From the IMG/VR virus record IMGVR_UViG_3300032307_001129, positions 2,427 through 66,426 of that record: a stretch of 64,000 nucleotides of DNA; one strand, given 5' to 3'. Under the pieces are notes generated by a model. That model made no database searches. It was not told the origin of the DNA and worked only from the letters and a program-made list of their open reading frames with translations. This stretch comes from a virus. The translations under genes were made by a program, and so were the position numbers. Positions 6,936-62,305 of this stretch are shown one piece after another; positions within the stretch are counted from its first letter, which is position 1, and each line of letters opens with the position of its first letter.

Positions 6936-7992
6936 AGAAAATATTGAAAAATTAGAAAATTCGTTACATAATTTAATCTCTAACGAACATGTTATTTATT
7001 TTTTAACTTATGATACTAAGAATAATCCTAGAGCATCAGTTAAATATATTTATGACGTTGCATTAACATTAAAGAACAATGGATATAATGTTAAAATATT
7101 AGTTGAAGATAAAACATATCAAGGAGTACAATCATGGTTAGGAAATGATTATGATTCATTAGATGTTTTAACGATTAAAGATGATAAAGTTGAAATAAAA
7201 ATAGAAGATATTGTTGTTGTTCCAGAATATTATTCTAACATATTAGAAAACCTTTCTAATATTAAATGTACTAAAATTATGTTAGTACAACAAAAAGAAT
7301 ATATTTACGAAACATTACCAATTGGTAGTAGATGGATTAATTTTGGTTTTGATAAAATAATCACTACAACAGAATCTACTAAAAAATATATAATGGAATA
7401 TTTTAAAGATGTTAATGTATTTATTATTCCACCAATAATCGGAGAAAACTTTAAACCAAATGAAAAAACACCTAATCCGACTATTTCTATTTCTTGTAGA
7501 GATAGATCAATCAATAAAAAAATTATATCAGAATTTTATTTAAAATACCCACAATTAAGATGGATAAATTTTAAAGATATGAATCAATTAACATATGAAG
7601 AATTTTCAGACGCGTTAAAAGATTCTTTTGTTTCTGTTTGGGTAGATGATGATTCAACTTTCGGTACGTTTCCATTGGAATCCATGAAATGTGGTGTACC
7701 TGTAATTGGTAAAATACCTAAAAACGAACCGGATTGGTTAGATGAAAACGGAATGTGGACATATGATGAAAATAAAATTACTGAAATTTTAGGTAAGTAT
7801 GTTATGGCTTGGATTGAAGGTGTTGAACTAACAGATGAAGTTAAACAAAAAATGAAGGATACATTGTTACCTTATGAAAAAGAAATAACTGAAAAGAATA
7901 TTACAGTTATTTTCGAATCTTTTAAAACAAATAGAATAACAGTCATAGAAAAGGCATTAGAAAAATTAAATAACGAAGAAATAAAAGTATGA
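6922..7992 (+). CDS. GT-B glycosyltransferase-like protein
   Basis: STFGTFPLESMKCGVPVIG (GT4-like motif). Confidence 0.75.
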   Translation: MNMNKENIEKLENSLHNLISNEHVIYFLTYDTKNNPRASVKYIYDVALTLKNNGYNVKILVEDKTYQGVQSWLGNDYDSLDVLTIKDDKVEIKIEDIVVVPEYYSNILENLSNIKCTKIMLVQQKEYIYETLPIGSRWINFGFDKIITTTESTKKYIMEYFKDVNVFIIPPIIGENFKPNEKTPNPTISISCRDRSINKKIISEFYLKYPQLRWINFKDMNQLTYEEFSDALKDSFVSVWVDDDSTFGTFPLESMKCGVPVIGKIPKNEPDWLDENGMWTYDENKITEILGKYVMAWIEGVELTDEVKQKMKDTLLPYEKEITEKNITVIFESFKTNRITVIEKALEKLNNEEIKV

Positions 7993-18981: not shown

Positions 18982-19839
18982 ATGAAACATTCAGAAGTAT
19001 TAAGTAGATATGTAAATTCAGGAAAACATATACCAGAAGAACAATATGAACGTTTAACAACAGTATTAAAGAAATCTTATCTTAGAATAAGAAGTGTTGC
19101 CGGTTTTAAAGATTGGGAATATGAATTTATAAGTGATAATCAAAGAATTAACTATATTGAAAAAAAAGGTGTAAAATTAGAAAAAGATGACGCAAAGGAT
19201 TTACTTAAATATTCAATTAATAAAGACCTTATTGCAACAAAAATTATTGATGTAAAGGGTGAAAATTTGAATTATAACGATATAAATAATTTACTTAAAT
19301 ATTCAGAGAATAAAGATGATATTGCTACAAAAATTATTGATGTAAAGCGTGAAAAATGGAATTATACCGATGTAGACTTTTTACTTAATTATTCAATTAA
19401 TAAAGACGTTATTGCGAAAAAAATTATTGATGTAAAAGGTGAAAAATTGAATGTTTATGATATAGTAAAATTAGTTACTATTTTAAAAGATAATGAATAT
19501 TATATCATACCTTTTATTTTAAAAATTATTGATGTAAAAGGTGAAAAATTGAATGATTTTGATATACACCATTTACTTGAACACTCGGATAATAAAGATA
19601 AAATTGCAATAAAAATTATCGAATCAAAAGGTGAAAAATTAAATGATTATGATATAAACCAATTAATTAAACGTTCAGAAAATAAAGAATTAATAAAGAA
19701 AACGTTATTACAAAATGGTGTTGATTATAAATTAATAAATGATGTAATAACAAGTTATAATATAGATACCCCATTAATACCAGACGATTACCAATCAATG
19801 TTACAAGAAATAAGAAGGATTAAAGAGATAATGATATGA
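18982..19839 (+). CDS. 30-aa repeat protein, paralog 1 (6 repeats)
   Basis: IDVKGExLxxxDIxxLLxYSxNKDxIATKI repeats. Confidence 0.85.
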   Translation: MKHSEVLSRYVNSGKHIPEEQYERLTTVLKKSYLRIRSVAGFKDWEYEFISDNQRINYIEKKGVKLEKDDAKDLLKYSINKDLIATKIIDVKGENLNYNDINNLLKYSENKDDIATKIIDVKREKWNYTDVDFLLNYSINKDVIAKKIIDVKGEKLNVYDIVKLVTILKDNEYYIIPFILKIIDVKGEKLNDFDIHHLLEHSDNKDKIAIKIIESKGEKLNDYDINQLIKRSENKELIKKTLLQNGVDYKLINDVITSYNIDTPLIPDDYQSMLQEIRRIKEIMI

Positions 19840-20510
19840 AACATTCAGAAGTATTAAGTAGATATGTGAATACTGGACAACGAATACCAGAAAAACAATT
19901 TGACCGTTTAACACCAGTATTAAAGAAGTCTTATCTTAGAATGAGAGGGGTTGCCGTTAATTATTCTCGTTGGGAATTTAAAGTGATAAGTGATATTCAA
20001 AGAATCAATTATATTGAAAAAAAAGGTGAAAAGTTAGACCATATAGAAATAGAAGATTTACTTAAATATTCAGTTAATAAAGATGATATTGCCACAAAAA
20101 TTATTGAAGCAAAAGGTGATACATTAAATAATGATGGTAACAGTTATTACTTTTTACTTGATTATTCACAAAATAAAGACCTTATCTCAACAAAAATTAT
20201 TGAAGCAAAAGGTAAAAAATTAGATAGTAACGAAATATTCTATTCACTTAAATATTCAGTTAATAAAGATGATATTGCAACAAAAATTATTCGCACAAAA
20301 GATGAAAATTATAAAAAAATAGATATATCTTATTTACTTCAATTGTCACATAATAAAGAAATAATAAAAAAATTATTGTTACAAAAAGGTATTGATTATA
20401 AATTAATAAATGATGTCATAACTAATGATGATATAGATATCCCATTAATACCAGACAATTACCAATCAATGTTACAAGAAATAAGAAGGATTAAAGAGAT
20501 AATGATATGA
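19836..20510 (+). CDS. 30-aa repeat protein, paralog 2 (4 repeats)
   Basis: Near-identical termini to its neighbours; ATGA overlap. Confidence 0.85.
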   Translation: MKHSEVLSRYVNTGQRIPEKQFDRLTPVLKKSYLRMRGVAVNYSRWEFKVISDIQRINYIEKKGEKLDHIEIEDLLKYSVNKDDIATKIIEAKGDTLNNDGNSYYFLLDYSQNKDLISTKIIEAKGKKLDSNEIFYSLKYSVNKDDIATKIIRTKDENYKKIDISYLLQLSHNKEIIKKLLLQKGIDYKLINDVITNDDIDIPLIPDNYQSMLQEIRRIKEIMI

Positions 20511-21256
20511 AACATTCAGAAGTATTAAGTAGATATGTGAATACCGGTACACAAATACCAGAAAAACAATATGACCGTTTAACACCAGTGTTAAAGAAGT
20601 CTTATCTTAGAATGAGAAGGGTTGCAGGTTATGACGGTTGGGAATTTAAATTTTTAACTGATGATGAAAGAATAAAATCTATTGAAAAAAAAGGTAAAGA
20701 ATTACTTCAAAATGAAATAAATTATTTACTTTATAGTTCAAATGATAATGACCTTATTGCAACAAAAATTATTGATGTGAAAGGTGAAAAATTGAGTCAT
20801 TATGATATATATCATTTAGTTAAACGATCAAAAAGTATAGATAATATCGCAATAAAAATTATTGAAGTAAAAGGTGAAGATTTGGATTATAATGATATAC
20901 ATGAATTAATTCATTATTCACGTAATAAAGACCTTATTGCAACAAAAATTATTGATGTAAAAGGTGAAAAATTGTGGTCACAAGAAATAAAAATTTTACT
21001 TCAATATACTTCTGAAAACATTGAAGTAAAAATAATTCAAACAAAAGAAATTAAATTAAGTAAAATCGATATAAATAATTTACTTACATATTCAAAAGAT
21101 AAAGAATTAATAAAGAAATTATTATTACAAAAAGGTATTGATTATAAATTAATAAATGATGTAATAACAAGTTATAATATAGATACCCCATTAATACCAG
21201 ACAATTACCAATCAATGTTAAATGAGATAAAAAGGATTAAAGAGATAATGAAATAA
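20507..21256 (+). CDS. 30-aa repeat protein, paralog 3 (5 repeats)
   Basis: Near-identical termini to its neighbours; ATGA overlap. Confidence 0.85.
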   Translation: MKHSEVLSRYVNTGTQIPEKQYDRLTPVLKKSYLRMRRVAGYDGWEFKFLTDDERIKSIEKKGKELLQNEINYLLYSSNDNDLIATKIIDVKGEKLSHYDIYHLVKRSKSIDNIAIKIIEVKGEDLDYNDIHELIHYSRNKDLIATKIIDVKGEKLWSQEIKILLQYTSENIEVKIIQTKEIKLSKIDINNLLTYSKDKELIKKLLLQKGIDYKLINDVITSYNIDTPLIPDNYQSMLNEIKRIKEIMK

Positions 21257-22284: not shown

Positions 22285-22305
22285 ACTATATAAATATACT
22301 CAATT

Positions 22306-31820: not shown

Positions 31821-31831
31821 ATATATAAATA

Positions 31832-31862
31832 TAAAAAAAGGTGAAATTAATCACCTTTTTTT
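31832..31862. terminator. hairpin terminator
   Basis: AAAAAGGTGA...TCACCTTTTT. Confidence 0.6.
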
Positions 31863-38267: not shown

Positions 38268-40280
38268 ATGTCAGTAGATTATTTTGACGAAGGTCAACAA
38301 ACATCCTTTAAAAAGGTAAGGAAAGGTTCGAGGACGCCAATTCTCGATAATTTCTCAAGAGATTTAAATAAATTGGCTGAAGAAGGTAAAATCGATCCCG
38401 TCATCGGTAGAGAATCTGAAGTAAAAAGAATTGCCCAAATTATTTCAAGAAAGAAAAAAAATAACGCGGTTATTGTTGGAGATGCGGGTGTTGGTAAATC
38501 TGTGTTGGTTGAAAAATTAGCGTTATTAATTGTTAAGGGGGAATGTCCGTCAAATCTATTAGATAAAAGAATATTATCTTTAGATTTAACTTCATTAGTT
38601 GCTGGTACTAAATATCGAGGTCAATTTGAGGAAAGAATTAAAGCGATATTAAACGAGTTACAAAACGAACCTAATATTATTATCTTCATTGATGAACTAC
38701 ATACAATGGTAGGTGCTGGTAATGCTTCAGGTTCAATGGATGTTGCTAATATTCTTAAACCAGCATTGGCTCGGGGTGAAATTCAATGTATTGGTGCAAC
38801 CACATTTGATGAATATAAGAAACATATTGAAAAAGATGCCGCTTTAGTTAGAAGGTTCCAAAAAATTATTTTAAAAGAACCTACTAAACCTGAGACAATT
38901 TTAATTTTGAATAACTTAAAAGAAGTATATCAAAATTATCATAAGGTTAAATATGATGAGGATGTTATTGAAACGATTGTAAATCTATCATCACAATATA
39001 TTACTGATAGACAATTTCCTGATAAGGCAATTGATATATTAGATGAATTAGGGTCTAATAAAAAAATAAATTTAAAGTCTCCTCAAATAATTGAAGATTT
39101 AAAGAAAGAATCTGAAGAGATAAAGGAAAGAAAACTACAAGTAGTAAAAACTCAAAATTATGAACAAGCGGCTAAGCTTAGGGACGATGAAAAAAAAGTT
39201 TTAGTTAAACTTGAAGATGAAAAAAGTAAGTGGTCCGAAAAACAAAAAAATAATTTAATACCTATTAATGTTGACGATGTATATAATATAATCTCAGATG
39301 TAACAGGTATTCCAATATCTAAGTTAGATGTTAATGAAATTGAAAAATTAATAAACTTAGAAGAACGGTTATCCTCAAAAATAATTGGTCAAAGTGATGC
39401 TATTTCAATCATATCTAAATCAATTAGAAGAAATAGAGTTGGTATTAAAGAAAATAATAGACCTATTGGTTCATTTATTTTTGTTGGTTCAACAGGTGTG
39501 GGTAAAACTTTCTTAGCTAAAACAATAGCTGAAGTTGTTTTTGGTGATCCAAACAAAATGATTCGTGTAGATATGAGTGAATTCATGGAAAAACATAATG
39601 TTTCTCGTTTGATTGGTTCACCACCAGGATATGTTGGTCATGATGAAGGTGGTCAATTAACTGAAAAAATTAAGAATAATCCATTCTCCGTTGTTTTATT
39701 TGATGAGATAGAAAAAGCACATAAAGATGTTTATAACATTCTCCTTCAAATAATGGATGAAGGTCACCTTACAGATTCTTTTGGTAGAAAAGTTAATTTT
39801 ACAAATACTATCATTATTATGACATCTAATGTTGGTGCTAAAAAAGTGGTAGATTTTGGTAATGGTTTAGGTTTTAATACTTCATCTAGTGATACACAAA
39901 GACAGGAAGTTAAAAAATCTATTATTCAACAATCATTGAAACAACAATTTACACCTGAATTTTTAAATAGACTTGATGATATTATTCTATTTAATTCATT
40001 AAATAATGATGACATTAAAAAAATTATCACTATTGAATTAAATAAATTAAGTAATAGGATTTCAGAAAAAAATTATATAATTTCATTCAATGAAAGTGTT
40101 CTTAATGAAATCATTAATTTAAATACAATGGAAGAATATGGTGCAAGACCTATTAAACGAATCATACAAAATTTATGTGAAGATTTTATATCTGATGAAA
40201 TTTTAAAAGGTAATATTGTAGAAAATAAATCTATAGAATTAAATTTTGAAAATGAAAAAATGAATTTTTTTGTAAAATAA
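38268..40280 (+). CDS. clpC: ClpC-like AAA+ ATPase lacking the Clp N-domain
   Basis: [31 protein letters not shown]-type [29 protein letters not shown]. Confidence 0.92.
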
Positions 40281-40340
40281 TGTAAATATTTTGGTTTTTA
40301 ATAAAAACGTATATATTTATATTTATATTTATTAAAAAAT

Positions 40341-40431
40341 AAGGTATCTTTGCCGATATCCTTTCGTTTGATGTCGTGGAGTTGAATCCACAAATGACCT
40401 AGAAGCCTCGATTCCCATCGAGGCTTTTTTT
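40341..40431 (+). ncRNA. putative small structured RNA (RNA-A)
   Basis: Tandem TATTTAT upstream; two hairpins; terminator AAGCCTCGAT-TCCC-ATCGAGGCTT+T run; GC-rich relative to flanks; no meaningful ORF. Confidence 0.55.
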
Positions 40432-40465
40432 CTTGTTAAAATTTTTTTTTACGGATTTAATTTGT

Positions 40466-40473
40466 TATATTTG
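40466..40473 (+). promoter_or_regulatory. Bacteroidota-type -7 element TATATTTG
   Basis: TAnnTTTG upstream of 40490. Confidence 0.5.
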
Positions 40474-40489
40474 ATGATAAATTAAAAAA

Positions 40490-40804
40490 ATGACAAACAA
40501 TGTTACAATGGTAAAATTAGATATTGAAGGTGAGTACAATAATTTTACGGATTTTTATGGTGTTAATAAAGTTATCATATATAACAATATCATAAATTTA
40601 TTTGAAGATTTTAAAGATAAAAAGAAAAAGAAATTAGTCTTAGAATTATCTGCAAATATTGAAAATATCCAATGGAAAACTGAATTGGAATTCACGAGAA
40701 AAGAAATATATGTTCTTAAACGAGATATATTACCTTTCTTTGAAGAGATTGAAGATTATGAGACATGTGAGAAAGTATTTAACTTATGTGAAACAATAAA
40801 ATAA
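40490..40804 (+). CDS. small protein with C-terminal UVR-like motif
   Basis: FEEIEDYETCEKV. Confidence 0.55.
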   Translation: MTNNVTMVKLDIEGEYNNFTDFYGVNKVIIYNNIINLFEDFKDKKKKKLVLELSANIENIQWKTELEFTRKEIYVLKRDILPFFEEIEDYETCEKVFNLCETIK

Positions 40805-40837
40805 AAAAAAGGGAAGAGTTTTTAATTCTTCCCTTTT
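40805..40837. terminator. bidirectional terminator
   Basis: AAAAGGGAAGA...TCTTCCCTTTT between convergent genes. Confidence 0.7.
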
Positions 40838-40857
40838 AAAAATTAAATTAAAATAAT

Positions 40858-41025
40858 TTACCATTCTTTTCCTGATACACCACTATCTTTAGCTAGTGTT
40901 AATCCTAACGCGGTTAAGATAGTAGTCACCATTCCGGCTTGACTGGCATTAATCCAATCCATGTAAGTTGCAAAAGATACTAAAGCTAATACTACTCCTG
41001 CTGCTGTAGTTTTCCAGTTCTTCAT
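40858..41025 (-). CDS. 55-aa two-TM membrane protein, holin-like (absent from the ORF track)
   Basis: MKNWKTTAAGVVLALVSFATYMDWINASQAGMVTTILTALGLTLAKDSGVSGKEW; late motif at 41059. Confidence 0.7.
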   Translation of the reverse strand: MKNWKTTAAGVVLALVSFATYMDWINASQAGMVTTILTALGLTLAKDSGVSGKEW

Positions 41026-41089
41026 AATTTTAAAGTTTTAAAAAAAATTTATTTATTAATAAATATTGTAATAATGGAAAATCGTCAAG

Positions 41090-41353
41090 TTATTCTTCAG
41101 TTGTTGGTTCATTTTTTTCTAAATTCTTTTTATTTATCCATTTATCAATAGAACCAATACCAAAAGAACCTAATGTTATAATTAAGAAACCATCGAAGAT
41201 GAATTCATTTATTACAAACTCTTTTCCCATCCAACCTTTTATTATGTCAATAAACATAGTTAAAACCATCATAAAAAATGCGATAAAACCTATTACAGAT
41301 TTCTCATTAATTGAGTTATTATCGTTAAATAATTCTTTTAATAATTTTCTCAT
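41090..41353 (-). CDS. two-TM membrane protein, holin-like
   Basis: Two hydrophobic segments and a charged tail. Confidence 0.55.
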   Translation of the reverse strand: MRKLLKELFNDNNSINEKSVIGFIAFFMMVLTMFIDIIKGWMGKEFVINEFIFDGFLIITLGSFGIGSIDKWINKKNLEKNEPTTEE

Positions 41354-41420
41354 TTCAACGTGTTTTATTAACTATAATTAGTATGTTAATTAACGAAATT
41401 GTATATTTATATATAAAAAA

Positions 41421-42023
41421 GTGAAAGATTTATATTTAATACTTGTTTTAATCTTATCACCGTTATTTATTCAAAATAATACCATAGACTTAAATAATGT
41501 ACCTGTTTTATTTATTGGGGATTCACATACCGCTAATCATTCATGGGGATGGCAAATCCTTCTTAGGAATAAAACTAAATTAGAATTACATAACACCGCA
41601 GTAGTTGGGAAACAATTACCTTGGATGGTTTCTATTGGTAAAAAAACAATCACACCATATTTTAAATATTGTTTTATATATGGTGGTGTGAACGACATAC
41701 ATTCAAAAAGAAATCCTTATTTGGTTTATAAAGATGTACAACATATTGTTAATATATGTAATTCAAAAAATGTTATTCCTGTTGTTATTCTTGGACTTAA
41801 TGTTAATGAATGTATAAGTGTAACAAAAGAAAAAGAATATTTTTCAATAAATTATAAAAGATATCAACAATTATTAAATGATAGTATTGTTGGTGCAAAA
41901 ATAATTAATATTAATACAATTAATAAAAATGATTGTTTTGATTGGATTTGTCACATGAAATATTCAGGTCACAAAAAATTGTCTGATTTAGTTATAAAAC
42001 AAATGAATTTTAAATCATATTAA
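41421..42023 (+). CDS. SGNH/GDSL hydrolase with signal peptide
   Basis: FIGDSHT, GGVND, DWICH...GH; hydrophobic N-terminus. Confidence 0.8.
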   Translation: MKDLYLILVLILSPLFIQNNTIDLNNVPVLFIGDSHTANHSWGWQILLRNKTKLELHNTAVVGKQLPWMVSIGKKTITPYFKYCFIYGGVNDIHSKRNPYLVYKDVQHIVNICNSKNVIPVVILGLNVNECISVTKEKEYFSINYKRYQQLLNDSIVGAKIININTINKNDCFDWICHMKYSGHKKLSDLVIKQMNFKSY

Positions 42024-42074
42024 TTTGATATTTTAATTTTTTTTTCTTATATTTTATTATATCAAATATAAAAT

Positions 42075-42761
42075 ATGTCATATTCGGAAGAAATCATCAG
42101 TGTTGTTATTTCAACAAGAAAAATCGATGATTCAAATGTACAAAAAATTAAAAAAAAGTTTTCACATCCAAGGACTGAAATATTGGTTTATGAAAATAAT
42201 AATGAATTTTCATTATCTAAATTATATAATAAAGGTTTAGAGGAATCATCAAATAATATTGTTGTTTTTATGCACGACGATATCGATATTGAAACACCTA
42301 ATGTTTCACATATTTTAAATCAATTATTTAGTAAATTTCCTGAACATGGAATTATTGGGTTAGCTGGAACTGATGAGTTGGTTAGTGGAATGTGGTGGGA
42401 AAAAAGGGATAAGATGTATGGTAAAGTAAAACATGAACATAATGGAAAAATTCATTGTAATCATTACTCAGAAAGTTTAGGGTTTAATTTAAAAGACGTT
42501 GTTACTGTCGATGGTTTATTTTTTGCCGTTCATAAAAACAGAATAAAAGAAAAATTTGATGAGGAATTCGATGGTTTTCATTTCTATGATATTCCTTTTT
42601 GTGTTTTAAATCATTTAAAAGGTGTTAAAATTGGTGTAACAACTAAAATTATGGTGATACATAAATCAATCGGTCAAGTAAATGAACAATGGATAAATAA
42701 TAAATCAAGTTTTGAAAAAAAATATGGTAAATTATTACCATTGATCGTAAAAAGTTTTTAA
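42075..42761 (+). CDS. GT2-like glycosyltransferase
   Basis: YNKGL, VFMHDD, GIIGLAG, VDGLF, FDEEFDGFHFYD. Confidence 0.8.
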   Translation: MSYSEEIISVVISTRKIDDSNVQKIKKKFSHPRTEILVYENNNEFSLSKLYNKGLEESSNNIVVFMHDDIDIETPNVSHILNQLFSKFPEHGIIGLAGTDELVSGMWWEKRDKMYGKVKHEHNGKIHCNHYSESLGFNLKDVVTVDGLFFAVHKNRIKEKFDEEFDGFHFYDIPFCVLNHLKGVKIGVTTKIMVIHKSIGQVNEQWINNKSSFEKKYGKLLPLIVKSF

Positions 42762-42796
42762 CTTTAATCTTTATATTTATAATTAAAAAACAAATT

Positions 42797-43048
42797 ATGA
42801 AAAACTTATTTGAAAAATTAAAAAACTTTTTTGGTGGTACAGAAAAAAATGAACCAACAAAAAATGAAACGATTGTTGAGGTAAAACCAGTGGTAACTGA
42901 AAAGAAACCATCTTCTAAACCATCAAAAGTTAAGAAAAAAACAACGGAAGAAATTCCTACAATCACACTTGACACTGTAACAATTACATCAAGTAAAATT
43001 TCTTCAACATCAAATGACACTGATGTTAGAGGTCCTGAGTATAAATAA
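42797..43048 (+). CDS. small Lys/Thr-rich hypothetical protein
   Basis: 83-aa ORF with TATATTTAT upstream. Confidence 0.55.
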   Translation: MKNLFEKLKNFFGGTEKNEPTKNETIVEVKPVVTEKKPSSKPSKVKKKTTEEIPTITLDTVTITSSKISSTSNDTDVRGPEYK

Positions 43049-43069
43049 TTTATTTATACTCTAAATCAT

Positions 43070-43493
43070 GGGGGTGAATTAGAATCGATTGGCGTTGGTA
43101 TTGTAAGTAGGCACGTAGTCGGATTTCATCTACGACTTTAATAAATGGTGGAAAAAATTAGACGGAGACGTTTACAAAAACATGGAAATTGTTGGTTTAC
43201 TAGCAACTTCTAACGTGGAAGTAGCCTAAGGGTAAAAACACAAAACGGGTCGGTGGACATATAACCTTGGAACAGAAGTCCCTACGGTGTGATACAACCA
43301 TAAAAGTGTCAAAGGTCTCGTTCAGAGGACTACCTGTAATTCCATGAAAATGGTAAAAGTGAACTCGACACAGTTTTCGGTAACAATGTCAAAATAGGAA
43401 CCAAATATTTGTCAGTTGTGAATTAATTGAATAAACGTGTAGTCTATTTATGATAAAACGAACAAGACCCGGTGGCGGTGACCGGCACCTCCA
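43070..43493 (+). ncRNA. ssrA: tmRNA
   Basis: 5' GGGGGTG pairs with 3' CACCTCC-A including the G3:U70 Ala determinant; ...GAC-CCGGT/ACCGG T-stem; internal tag frame 43164-43229; ~424 nt. Confidence 0.88.
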
Positions 43494-43496
43494 CTT

Positions 43497-43532
43497 AAAC
43501 AAAAAACCCACCAATTGGTGGGTTTTTTGTTT
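43497..43532. terminator. terminator downstream of tmRNA
   Basis: AAACAAAAAACCCACC AATT GGTGGGTTTTTTGTTT perfect palindrome. Confidence 0.85.
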
Positions 43533-43649
43533 TAATGTTACTTCTTAAATAAATTATTAAATAATTTGTTAAATTCTTTTCTTAAATAAATATTTGATTA
43601 AATAAAAATATATTATTAATATATATTTATTTTTAAAAAAAGTAAAGTC

Positions 43650-43755
43650 TATAAACAAACAAAGGAATCAATTTGATTCCTTTGTTGAGATTTTGATACC
43701 TCCTTTCGTTTTTTAGTTAATTTATTATCATATAGCGACCAAACCATATGAGTCT
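43650..43755 (-). ncRNA. putative small RNA carrying an extended SD (RNA-B)
   Basis: Minus strand: TATTTATTTAT, hairpin TCATATGG..CTATATGA, AAACGAAAGGAGGTATC, then 13-bp terminator stem; no ATG after the SD. Confidence 0.5.
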
Positions 43756-43780
43756 ATAAATAAATATCACCAAAAATGAT

Positions 43781-44692
43781 TTAAGCTAATTTGTTAGCTA
43801 ATATTTTTACTAATGGTAGTGTTATTATACTACCAAATGAACTTAATGGGTTACTACTTGTTTCTTTTTTTGGATTTAAATCCGCGTCACTTGAATTTTG
43901 TGCGATAAATTCACTCATTTGTGGATTATCAGCTACTTTATCTCTAAAATTTTTATCATTTTGTAATTTATCTTCAAAAGACCCAACGTTAGGTAAACCA
44001 AATAATTCTAACATATTATTTGCTACAATAAAACGTCTAAATGAATCTCTTCTATCTTTTCCTGCACCATAATTTATCCACCATTTTTGAATAAAATTAC
44101 TTGGTTCCATCCCCCTTTTTGTAATATATTTAGATAATCTTTCACCTCTATAAAAATTTTTAAGACCTGTACTAAATTTACCTCCAGTTGTTGCACTTTT
44201 CACACCTGATTTAATGGCTTCTAATGGTGTTACTTTTGGTAAAACCTTCTTTATTGATGTTAAACCTTTCTCAATACTTGACATCCAATTTTCTGGTAGG
44301 TATTTTTTGTATTTTTCGTTATTTTTTACTGACTCAAACGCTTTTGTTAATTTTGATTCGTCACCCACTAATTCTTTTAACTTACTTGTAACTTTTGGAT
44401 TTTTATTTAATGCCTCTACTAAATTATTAGTATTTTTTAATGTTTTTTTACCTACTTGTAATGTTTTAATGAATGGTTTAACTAAAATATCTCCCACAGT
44501 TGGTATTAGGGCAATTAACATTAGTGCAGCGTATAAGTTTTCACCTTTTCTTAAATAATGAATAATTAATAAAATATCTGCGACTTCTCCAATTATAGGA
44601 AAATAACCTAATGTCATTAAAATATTTTCTACACTAAATAATGCTTCATTAATTAATCTTCTTTCTTCTAATATTTGTTGTTTTGTTTTCAT
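43781..44692 (-). CDS. hypothetical protein with PT-TG-like motifs
   Basis: LGYFPIIGEVAD and LIPTVGD. Confidence 0.6.
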   Translation of the reverse strand: MKTKQQILEERRLINEALFSVENILMTLGYFPIIGEVADILLIIHYLRKGENLYAALMLIALIPTVGDILVKPFIKTLQVGKKTLKNTNNLVEALNKNPKVTSKLKELVGDESKLTKAFESVKNNEKYKKYLPENWMSSIEKGLTSIKKVLPKVTPLEAIKSGVKSATTGGKFSTGLKNFYRGERLSKYITKRGMEPSNFIQKWWINYGAGKDRRDSFRRFIVANNMLELFGLPNVGSFEDKLQNDKNFRDKVADNPQMSEFIAQNSSDADLNPKKETSSNPLSSFGSIITLPLVKILANKLA

Positions 44693-49139: not shown

Positions 49140-49203
49140 ACTTTATAAATATATTCGTTTAATATATACAACTTAATGTTTTTTTTTTATAATTATCTAT
49201 ATT

Positions 49204-58675: not shown

Positions 58676-58719
58676 TTTTTTTAAAAACTAAAATATTTAT
58701 ATAAAACGAAAGGAATATT

Positions 58720-59079
58720 ATGAAAACTAACTTAAATCATCCTACATTTTTGTTGTTCTTAGATACAGTTGTGTCTAATATTTTAACAAATATTAAAGTA
58801 GACAATTATTTTTCCTTAACAAAGGAAAAGAAAACACCTATTCAGTATTTAACTTTAAAAATTATTTCACAATTAATAAAAGTTAGAATTAAATTAACAA
58901 ATGAAGATTTATTGGAATTTATTAATATTCTAATAAAGAAAAATGAAGATTCAGAACAATATGAATTGGCAGGGATTTTAATTGATGTGGTTAATAATTT
59001 CGAATCGCTTAACGAAAAAATTACTGATGTTAAAAAAGTCAAAAGAACTATTAAAGTAGACAAAACACCAAATGAATAG
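58720..59079 (+). CDS. hypothetical protein with UVR-like motif and a strong SD leader
   Basis: EDSEQYELAGILID; leader AAACGAAAGGA. Confidence 0.6.
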   Translation: MKTNLNHPTFLLFLDTVVSNILTNIKVDNYFSLTKEKKTPIQYLTLKIISQLIKVRIKLTNEDLLEFINILIKKNEDSEQYELAGILIDVVNNFESLNEKITDVKKVKRTIKVDKTPNE

Positions 59080-62280: not shown

Positions 62281-62305
62281 AAAAAGGAGGTTAATACCTC
62301 CTTTT
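62281..62305. terminator. bidirectional hairpin terminator
   Basis: AAAAGGAGGT TAAT ACCTCCTTTT between convergent genes. Confidence 0.65.

Follow-up and report, generated by a model that had tools for sequence, protein, structure and literature searches.

The 64,000-nucleotide stretch of viral DNA analysed here (the window) carries on its minus strand, at about 43755..43650, an element of ~105 nt that is very probably a real, conserved, structured and functional non-coding RNA. The evidence supports a stand-alone RNA candidate that contains an extended Shine–Dalgarno sequence (SD) without a start codon. Together with its homologues, the element constitutes a new family of RNAs, well conserved among giant freshwater phages and located beside the phage tmRNA.

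Architecture, fold and conservation of the element

The element lies downstream of a 303-aa gene (43781..44692), which stops at 43781, and starts 13 nt past the stop codon. It opens with a promoter-like motif, gATATTTATTTAT (43768..43756, minus strand), in which GATATTTATT is invariant in all six homologues and which would act as a promoter. This motif is followed by a 5' hairpin, HP1 (43751..43728, minus strand; 9 bp, loop TTGGTC), by a central region (43687..43727, minus strand) made up of an A/U-rich single strand, the invariant block CGAAAGGAGGTA, a variable 3-nt patch and the motif AAATCTC, and by an intrinsic terminator (43651..43686, minus strand). The SD 10-mer GAAAGGAGGT (43707..43698, minus strand) is contained within CGAAAGGAGGTA and is the sole exact copy in the 64 kb, and ATCAAAATCTC sits between CGAAAGGAGGTA and the terminator stem. 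The terminator has the features expected of a small RNA gene, namely a 13-pair stem (43686..43658), one pair of which has changed in a compensatory manner, and a T-rich tail, TGTTTAT. The SD is followed by ATCAAAATCTCAACAAAGG, and the next ATG, GTG or TTG is a TTG in the terminator loop. An earlier, sequence-only reading of this DNA had described the promoter-like run, the 5' hairpin, the SD 10-mer and the 13-bp terminator stem on the minus strand, with no start codon at SD spacing, and the window agrees with it on all these points.

The fold is well defined and specific to one strand. In an alignment of the six homologues, both hairpins are paired in 124 of 124 cells over 21 pairs, as opposed to 39–55% when the partner columns are slid, and this pairing is maintained through 8 further pair types and one compensatory pair. 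Five of the nine HP1 pairs vary, on one side only and always via G-U, which fits the minus strand only; the terminator displays one A-U to G-C compensatory pair (2 vs 4 sequences) and one G-U. Read on the plus strand, the 11 G-U cells of the minus strand become A-C mismatches. The predicted folding energy is -30.2 kcal/mol for the minus strand (z -5.08, with none of 200 shuffles as good) and -21.9 kcal/mol for the plus strand (z -2.82). Covariation is modest because the six sequences are closely related (its shuffle control gives only 24/500), and the structural case rests on perfect pairing and strand-specific wobble. No known RNA family fits the element: Rfam 15 yields no matches in a gathering pass over the whole window, and in sensitive mode over 42700-44000 the element attracts only rli47 (11.2 bits, gathering 200) and SSRC38 (18.6 bits, gathering 80), both at the level of noise.

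The homologues comprise the window, L005 and L007 from IMG/VR, and L009, L011 and L015 from metagenomes, with a mean column identity of 94% over the RNA. Among the four most divergent, the element is 0.85–0.93 identical, the intergenic flanks 0.42–0.73, the upstream gene mostly 0.40–0.85 and the tmRNA 0.85–1.0. The protein encoded by the upstream gene is 94, 72, 61 and 54% identical to that of the window in the relatives, and the element remains 85–93% identical in relatives in which this protein reaches only 54–72%. Conservation is not confined to the SD but extends over the entire stretch from AATAAAT through AAATCTC, and the best conserved part of the element is the stretch between the two hairpins (0.88–0.93).

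The block CGAAAGGAGGTA is invariant in six of six copies. The three metagenomic homologues were recovered with a pattern that required the SD, so its conservation in them is by construction. L005 and L007 were also recovered without the SD, by a search with the neighbouring protein and by a tmRNA pattern, and both keep CGAAAGGAGGTA. A third contig found with the tmRNA pattern (G003) ends a few bases before the element. A covariance model of the element has a single strong match per record (140.6 bits in G000, 130.1 in G001 and 124.7 in G002). The element pattern also hit six stretches in the genome collection, all unrelated and of high G+C, and five of the eight stretches that it hit in metagenomes are unrelated as well. 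Among GenBank phages, no DNA similarity to the window was found.

A 6-kb stretch is partly present in 20 sequencing runs from 16 studies, mostly of lake or freshwater DNA. Two metatranscriptome runs of a single sludge study contain contigs of a relative that is roughly 8% divergent. One of these contigs (X19) extends from the operon across the element as far as the terminator of the tmRNA, and another (X20) ends at 43725, 3 nt past the first hairpin, and continues into 25 loose letters, which we take to be sequencing adapter. Assembled contigs show no ends, strand or level, may derive from DNA carry-over and mean nothing where they leave parts uncovered; they cannot show transcripts and are therefore a weak hint only, equally compatible with read-through, with processing and with an independent RNA.

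Such contigs would also suit another explanation, in which the element is only the 3' untranslated end of the operon that ends with the 303-aa gene, its hairpins stabilise and terminate the mRNA, there is no separate RNA and the SD has no function. The 13-nt distance to the stop codon points the same way, as do the span of X19 from the operon through the element and the end of X20, which, followed by the presumed adapter, hints at an RNA end at 43725. A terminator, however, has no need of 40 invariant single-stranded nucleotides, and here it is precisely the inter-hairpin stretch that is conserved best. Moreover, an invariant promoter-like motif is inserted between the stop codon and the first hairpin, and the few bases that precede it vary. 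This explanation appears improbable to us.

The element has no conserved reading frame, and what is conserved is its structure. It had been called ORF-less, but in the window a 32-aa ATG ORF (43747..43649, minus strand) does cross it. This ORF spans the element in the window only and is judged to be no gene: in L005 GTG replaces the ATG and the frame runs into a stop after 9 codons, and in L007 a 1-nt deletion shifts the frame. A second frame begins with an AUC six nt past the SD and runs for seven codons (ISTKES[N/I]) to a TGA in five of the six homologues; in L015, a 1-nt deletion in the loop removes its stop. The element could be a tiny mRNA from which one of these two peptides is translated, and the 32-aa ORF of the window, the ideal SD spacing of the AUC and the recurrence of the seven-codon frame could be taken in that sense. 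However, the first frame does not survive in L005 and is out of register in L007, and the second lies within the terminator stem, which explains its conservation, loses its stop in L015 and would have to start at AUC, a very poor start codon. Translation of either frame is very improbable.

A 10-bp direct repeat, AGTCTATAAA, had been proposed to flank the element. It does occur exactly twice in the window, 105 bp apart (43646..43655, plus strand, downstream; 43751-43760, upstream), but the upstream copy falls within the promoter and the 5' end of the RNA and so does not flank the latter. The two copies, with no others in the window, are what would be expected if a small mobile insertion had duplicated 10 bp of its target site. 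Against this origin, the repeat is exact in just two of the six homologues, the element has a single copy per record, and no empty site was seen among the relatives, where the sequence-only reading had suggested looking for one: all five that span the site carry the element. Furthermore, the A+T-rich window contains 271 distinct direct repeats of at least 10 bp (with at least 2 G/C and spaced 20–150 nt), about 18 being expected after block shuffling. With conserved flanking repeats, empty sites and multiple copies all lacking, the insertion reading was rejected and deserves next to no credence; the repeat looks like chance.

The phage, its promoter-like motif and its tmRNA

The IMG/VR virus record from which the window derives measures 66.4 kb and has a G+C content of 26%. 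CheckV puts this record at 21% completeness, and the genome is therefore estimated to be near 300 kb. The window encodes a T4-like large terminase, a portal and a major head protein. In GenBank, the large terminase finds its best match in Flavobacterium myophages, with which it shares only 27% identity. The host is presumed to belong to the Bacteroidia. Elsewhere in the window, three adjacent paralogues (18982-21256, plus strand; 285, 224 and 249 aa), which have near-identical upstream sequences and all begin with ATGAAACAT, look like a tandem gene triplication, and the segment 38268-40280 (plus strand) encodes a phage ClpB/ClpC-like double AAA+ ATPase (PHROG 4871, E 3.8e-236). None of the neighbouring proteins of 303, 195, 638, 412 and 83 aa could be assigned to a Pfam or PHROG family.

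There are 22 copies of the motif ATATTTATA in the window (8.77 expected; none of 100 shuffles reaches 22), and most of them point toward a gene start 1–40 nt downstream. We infer that ATATTTATA is a phage promoter, and the invariant GATATTTATT with which the element opens matches this enriched, gene-preceding motif; the element may be transcribed from a promoter of its own. The motif is often found only 1–6 nt before an ATG, for example at 22289-22297, 31824-31832 and 49144-49152 (all minus strand), which suggests a phage-specific promoter that yields leaderless mRNAs or mRNAs with a very short leader. A second promoter-like sequence, ATATTTAT (43586-43593, minus strand), is located past the terminator of the element and faces that of the tmRNA; relatives hold motifs similar to it, and the intervening sequence is poorly conserved (0.42–0.73). 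Two other promoter types were considered for the window and rejected: the Bacteroidetes -7 motif TANNTTTGC is not enriched (4 copies, 10.1 expected), and a scan for sigma-70-type promoters remains at or below chance (11, with 14.1 expected).

The phage tmRNA (43070..43496, plus strand) is convergent with the element. It was identified in the sensitive mode of Rfam (RF00023, 49 bits with a gathering threshold of 47, E 5e-18) and was missed both by the gathering pass over the whole window and by ARAGORN. Its CCA 3' end is not encoded, and an open frame from about 43164 to a TAA at 43227-43229, ending in ..NVEVA, could be its tag. The tmRNA has no BLAST-level match in 201 genomes of the phylum Bacteroidota, a result that is uninformative on the host. 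Between the tmRNA and the element there is a G+C-rich palindromic terminator (43500..43531), which is usable in both directions and at which the contigs from RNA runs break.

The tmRNA directly adjoins the element in five of the six homologues. In L015, a small lysine-rich gene intervenes between the tmRNA and the shared terminator (L015 34-494 and 600-900, plus strand). The same small gene lies before the tmRNA in the window, so that gene order in L015 is rearranged locally, with the element still next to the terminator. In L005, a GOLLD RNA (7331-7736, minus strand; 294 bits) is found about 1.8 kb from the tmRNA, and the syntenic place in the window (40200-42100) has no Rfam hit, to GOLLD or otherwise. 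A relative represented in the RNA runs has 974 extra letters at 41420.

The sequence-only reading had offered, as one possible role for the element, that of a sponge for a second RNA. If that second RNA is the neighbouring tmRNA, the proposal does not hold: the best predicted duplexes have energies of -11.5 to -12.8 kcal/mol and the shuffled controls have means of -12.9 to -14.6 kcal/mol. Pairing between the element and the tmRNA is thus at chance level, no better than with shuffled tmRNA.

The extended SD and the 16S tail

The 10-mer is the exact complement of the 16S tail sequence ACCUCCUUUC, with 10 Watson–Crick pairs, and so falls within the 9–13 consecutive pairs that characterise the SD of rpsU, the gene for bS21. 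The complementarity had been pointed out before and proves exact, for a tail that may not be that of the host. The duplex of the element with the canonical 15-nt 16S 3' tail, a sequence that is assumed here and may differ from the host's, has an energy of -17.9 kcal/mol. The core GAGGU is predicted to be engaged in a weak 5-bp hairpin with AUCUC, with an unpaired probability of about 0.01; this hairpin displays no covariation, and opening it is predicted to cost 3.9–6.8 kcal/mol. The SD core may therefore be partly hidden in a small hairpin. An rpsU SD is placed a few nt upstream of the bS21 start codon, and no ATG, GTG or TTG takes that place after the SD of the element.

With up to one mismatch, the 10-mer occurs seven times in the window (2.42 expected; none of 100 shuffles reaches seven). 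Two of the SD-like matches are explained by a palindromic terminator between convergent genes (62282-62305), which consists of AAAAGGAGGT and its complement. Counts of the SD heptamer AGGAGGT in four related records are similar to those of a reversed control, and the heptamer was discarded as a signal. In 201 Bacteroidota genomes, the 10-mer itself and its reversed control occur about equally often, and the bare word is therefore uninformative.

Such a sequence is lacking at the gene starts of the phage. Among 63 phage gene starts, 31 have no match of at least 4 nt to the complement of the tail, one reaches 7 nt and the rest have 4–5 nt. The 25 bases before these starts are A-rich (0.51–0.68 A from -14 to -2) and G-poor. 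The starts are thus A-rich and SD-less, a pattern described for Bacteroidia (PMC13000453). The longest of the 63 matches (7 nt) belongs to a 119-aa gene at 58720, in which a promoter-like motif is followed by ACGAAAGGA, five nt before the ATG (58693-58722, plus strand); ACGAAAGGA represents the same nine bases that open the SD block of the element. The 119-aa protein has no Pfam family.

In Bacteroidota, rpsU is present in all 201 genomes sampled. Many of the 31 rpsU upstream regions inspected contain extended SDs of the GGAGGTGA type, and at one of these rpsU loci (L058) the 10-mer recurs letter for letter, followed after 6 nt by ATG; in the element, the same 10-mer is followed after 6 nt by ATC. 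A bS21 gene of the phage itself, which the sequence-only reading had thought worth seeking in the full genome, is absent (as PF01165) from G000, G001 and G002, records that are only 18–50% complete and thus cover the genome in part.

Other phages were searched for a comparable orphan SD. Flavobacterium phage immuto has eight AAGGAGGT sites, all of them, by eye, in coding-looking sequence, and nothing analogous to the element. The five largest of 14 bS21-encoding IMG/VR records contain five AAAGGAGGT sites, none of which resembles it; one of these sites precedes the bS21 gene of the phage as its SD, and another falls between tRNAs. A phage bS21 gene in IMGVR_UViG_3300037041_002705 (L120 / L113) stands behind a Bacteroidetes-type promoter box, TATCTTTG, and has an extended SD, GGAAAGGAGGTGAGG, six nt before its ATG; the other phage bS21 genes from the same search are without an SD.

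The likeness to an SD could also be incidental, the element being a trans-acting small RNA whose conserved single strand, GGAGG included, would pair with pyrimidine-rich stretches of mRNAs from the host or the phage. Its layout, in which about 40 conserved single-stranded nt separate a 5' hairpin from a terminator, is classical for such RNAs, and the conservation from AATAAAT through AAATCTC, rather than of the SD alone, can be counted in favour. No target was found, however: extended complements in the window are limited to the terminator palindrome at 62282-62305 and one intragenic site, and the tmRNA, as described above, pairs no better than its shuffled versions. In addition, the most conserved and most G+C-rich block of the element corresponds exactly to the complement of the 16S tail. 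A base-pairing regulator of this kind is an unlikely alternative on balance.

A possible decoy for the anti-SD

Several papers on Bacteroidia ribosomes provide a framework for the extended SD. In Flavobacteriales, rpsU is the only gene with a strong SD, which forms 9–13 consecutive pairs with the 16S tail (PMC9976891, PMC13000453); the statement of the sequence-only reading that Bacteroidota rarely use the SD, flavobacterial rpsU being the exception, agrees with both papers. According to cryo-EM data (PMC13000457), the extended SD–ASD helix and bS21 are mutually exclusive on the ribosome, and when bS21-replete ribosomes were bound to rpsU mRNA, 65% of the particles had lost bS21. Translation of rpsU improves on ribosomes devoid of bS21, so that an autoregulatory loop results. 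Such ribosomes initiate worse on SD-less mRNAs, according to PMC9976891, whose authors speculate that phages may encode products aiding bS21 exchange.

Because an SD of 9–13 bp is unique to rpsU in Flavobacteriales and its helix excludes bS21, a decoy for the anti-SD is the best mechanistic reading of the element. We put it forward tentatively that the element acts through the 16S tail in this manner. The RNA would be transcribed from a point just past GATATTTATT as far as the 13-bp intrinsic terminator and would lead from a protective 5' hairpin through the A/U-rich single strand and the invariant extended SD, CGAAAGGAGGUA, to the terminator. Such an RNA would copy a feature that in Flavobacteriales is otherwise reserved for rpsU, an SD of sufficient length to draw the 16S 3' tail out of the bS21/bS18/bS6 pocket, and would bind 30S or 70S particles through the SD helix without being translated. 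It could then capture bS21-free subunits or displace bS21 and would compete with the host rpsU mRNA, with the outcome that host bS21 autoregulation and ribosome make-up would be disturbed in late infection. In its full form, this reading describes a late small RNA with an SD of rpsU grade that, in Bacteroidia hosts, evicts bS21 or traps bS21-free subunits, starves the rpsU loop and would be the first RNA decoy for the anti-SD; this is possible but rather doubtful. Since ribosomes free of bS21 initiate worse on SD-less mRNAs, the decoy would harm the phage's own SD-less genes.

Two known systems resemble the element or its proposed role in outline. The 6S RNA is a non-coding RNA that mimics a nucleic-acid ligand and sequesters a core machine, RNA polymerase. 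The proposed logic is the same, with an abundant small RNA that occupies the docking site of a central machine unproductively, but the machine addressed by the element would be the ribosome, and there is neither a likeness in sequence or structure nor an Rfam match. Phage T4 has two small stable RNAs of unknown function, RNA C and RNA D, which are located in its tRNA cluster and are processed from it. Similar to the element, they are small phage RNAs beside genes for translation-related RNAs, a likeness by description only.

A further parallel is the extended SD of the rpsU mRNA itself (PMC9976891, PMC13000453, PMC13000457). Both match the 16S tail over at least 10 Watson–Crick pairs although SDs are avoided elsewhere in their genomes, and the L058 locus shares with the element both the 10-mer and the 6-nt spacing, its start codon corresponding in position to the ATC of the element. 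Unlike the rpsU mRNA, the element is phage-encoded, has no start codon or rpsU ORF, carries a 5' hairpin of its own and runs into a terminator straight after the SD.

Freshwater Bacteroidetes phages with genomes of ~300 kb are described in PMC9723584 as encoding bS21, with the gene located in the terminase/portal/capsid block. The phage of the window is similar to them in its freshwater origin, estimated genome size near 300 kb, low G+C and T4-like structural core, and the presumed target would likewise be the bS21/anti-SD corner of the 30S platform. It differs from them in that the element is an RNA and that the terminase/portal/capsid block of the window has no bS21 gene. PMC9723584 also includes a bS21-less outgroup genome of 308 kb with 27.3% G+C, which the phage resembles in size and composition, a likeness by those traits alone. 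The open-access literature that was searched holds no description of an RNA such as the element.

Should the decoy fail, a new conserved RNA family in giant freshwater phages would still stand, and the idea is directly testable with the tools available for Flavobacterium johnsoniae, namely bS21-depleted ribosomes, rpsU reporters and cryo-EM. The anti-SD of Bacteroidia is hidden and, as far as is known, serves a single regulatory purpose, the sensing of bS21 through the extended SD of rpsU. If the decoy is true, it would represent a direct viral attack on the bS21/rpsU circuit, or a use of it, by a non-coding RNA, and would put forward a specific candidate for the products aiding bS21 exchange on which the authors of PMC9976891 speculate. 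The phage would then re-programme ribosome composition with an RNA that either replaces or accompanies a phage bS21 protein.
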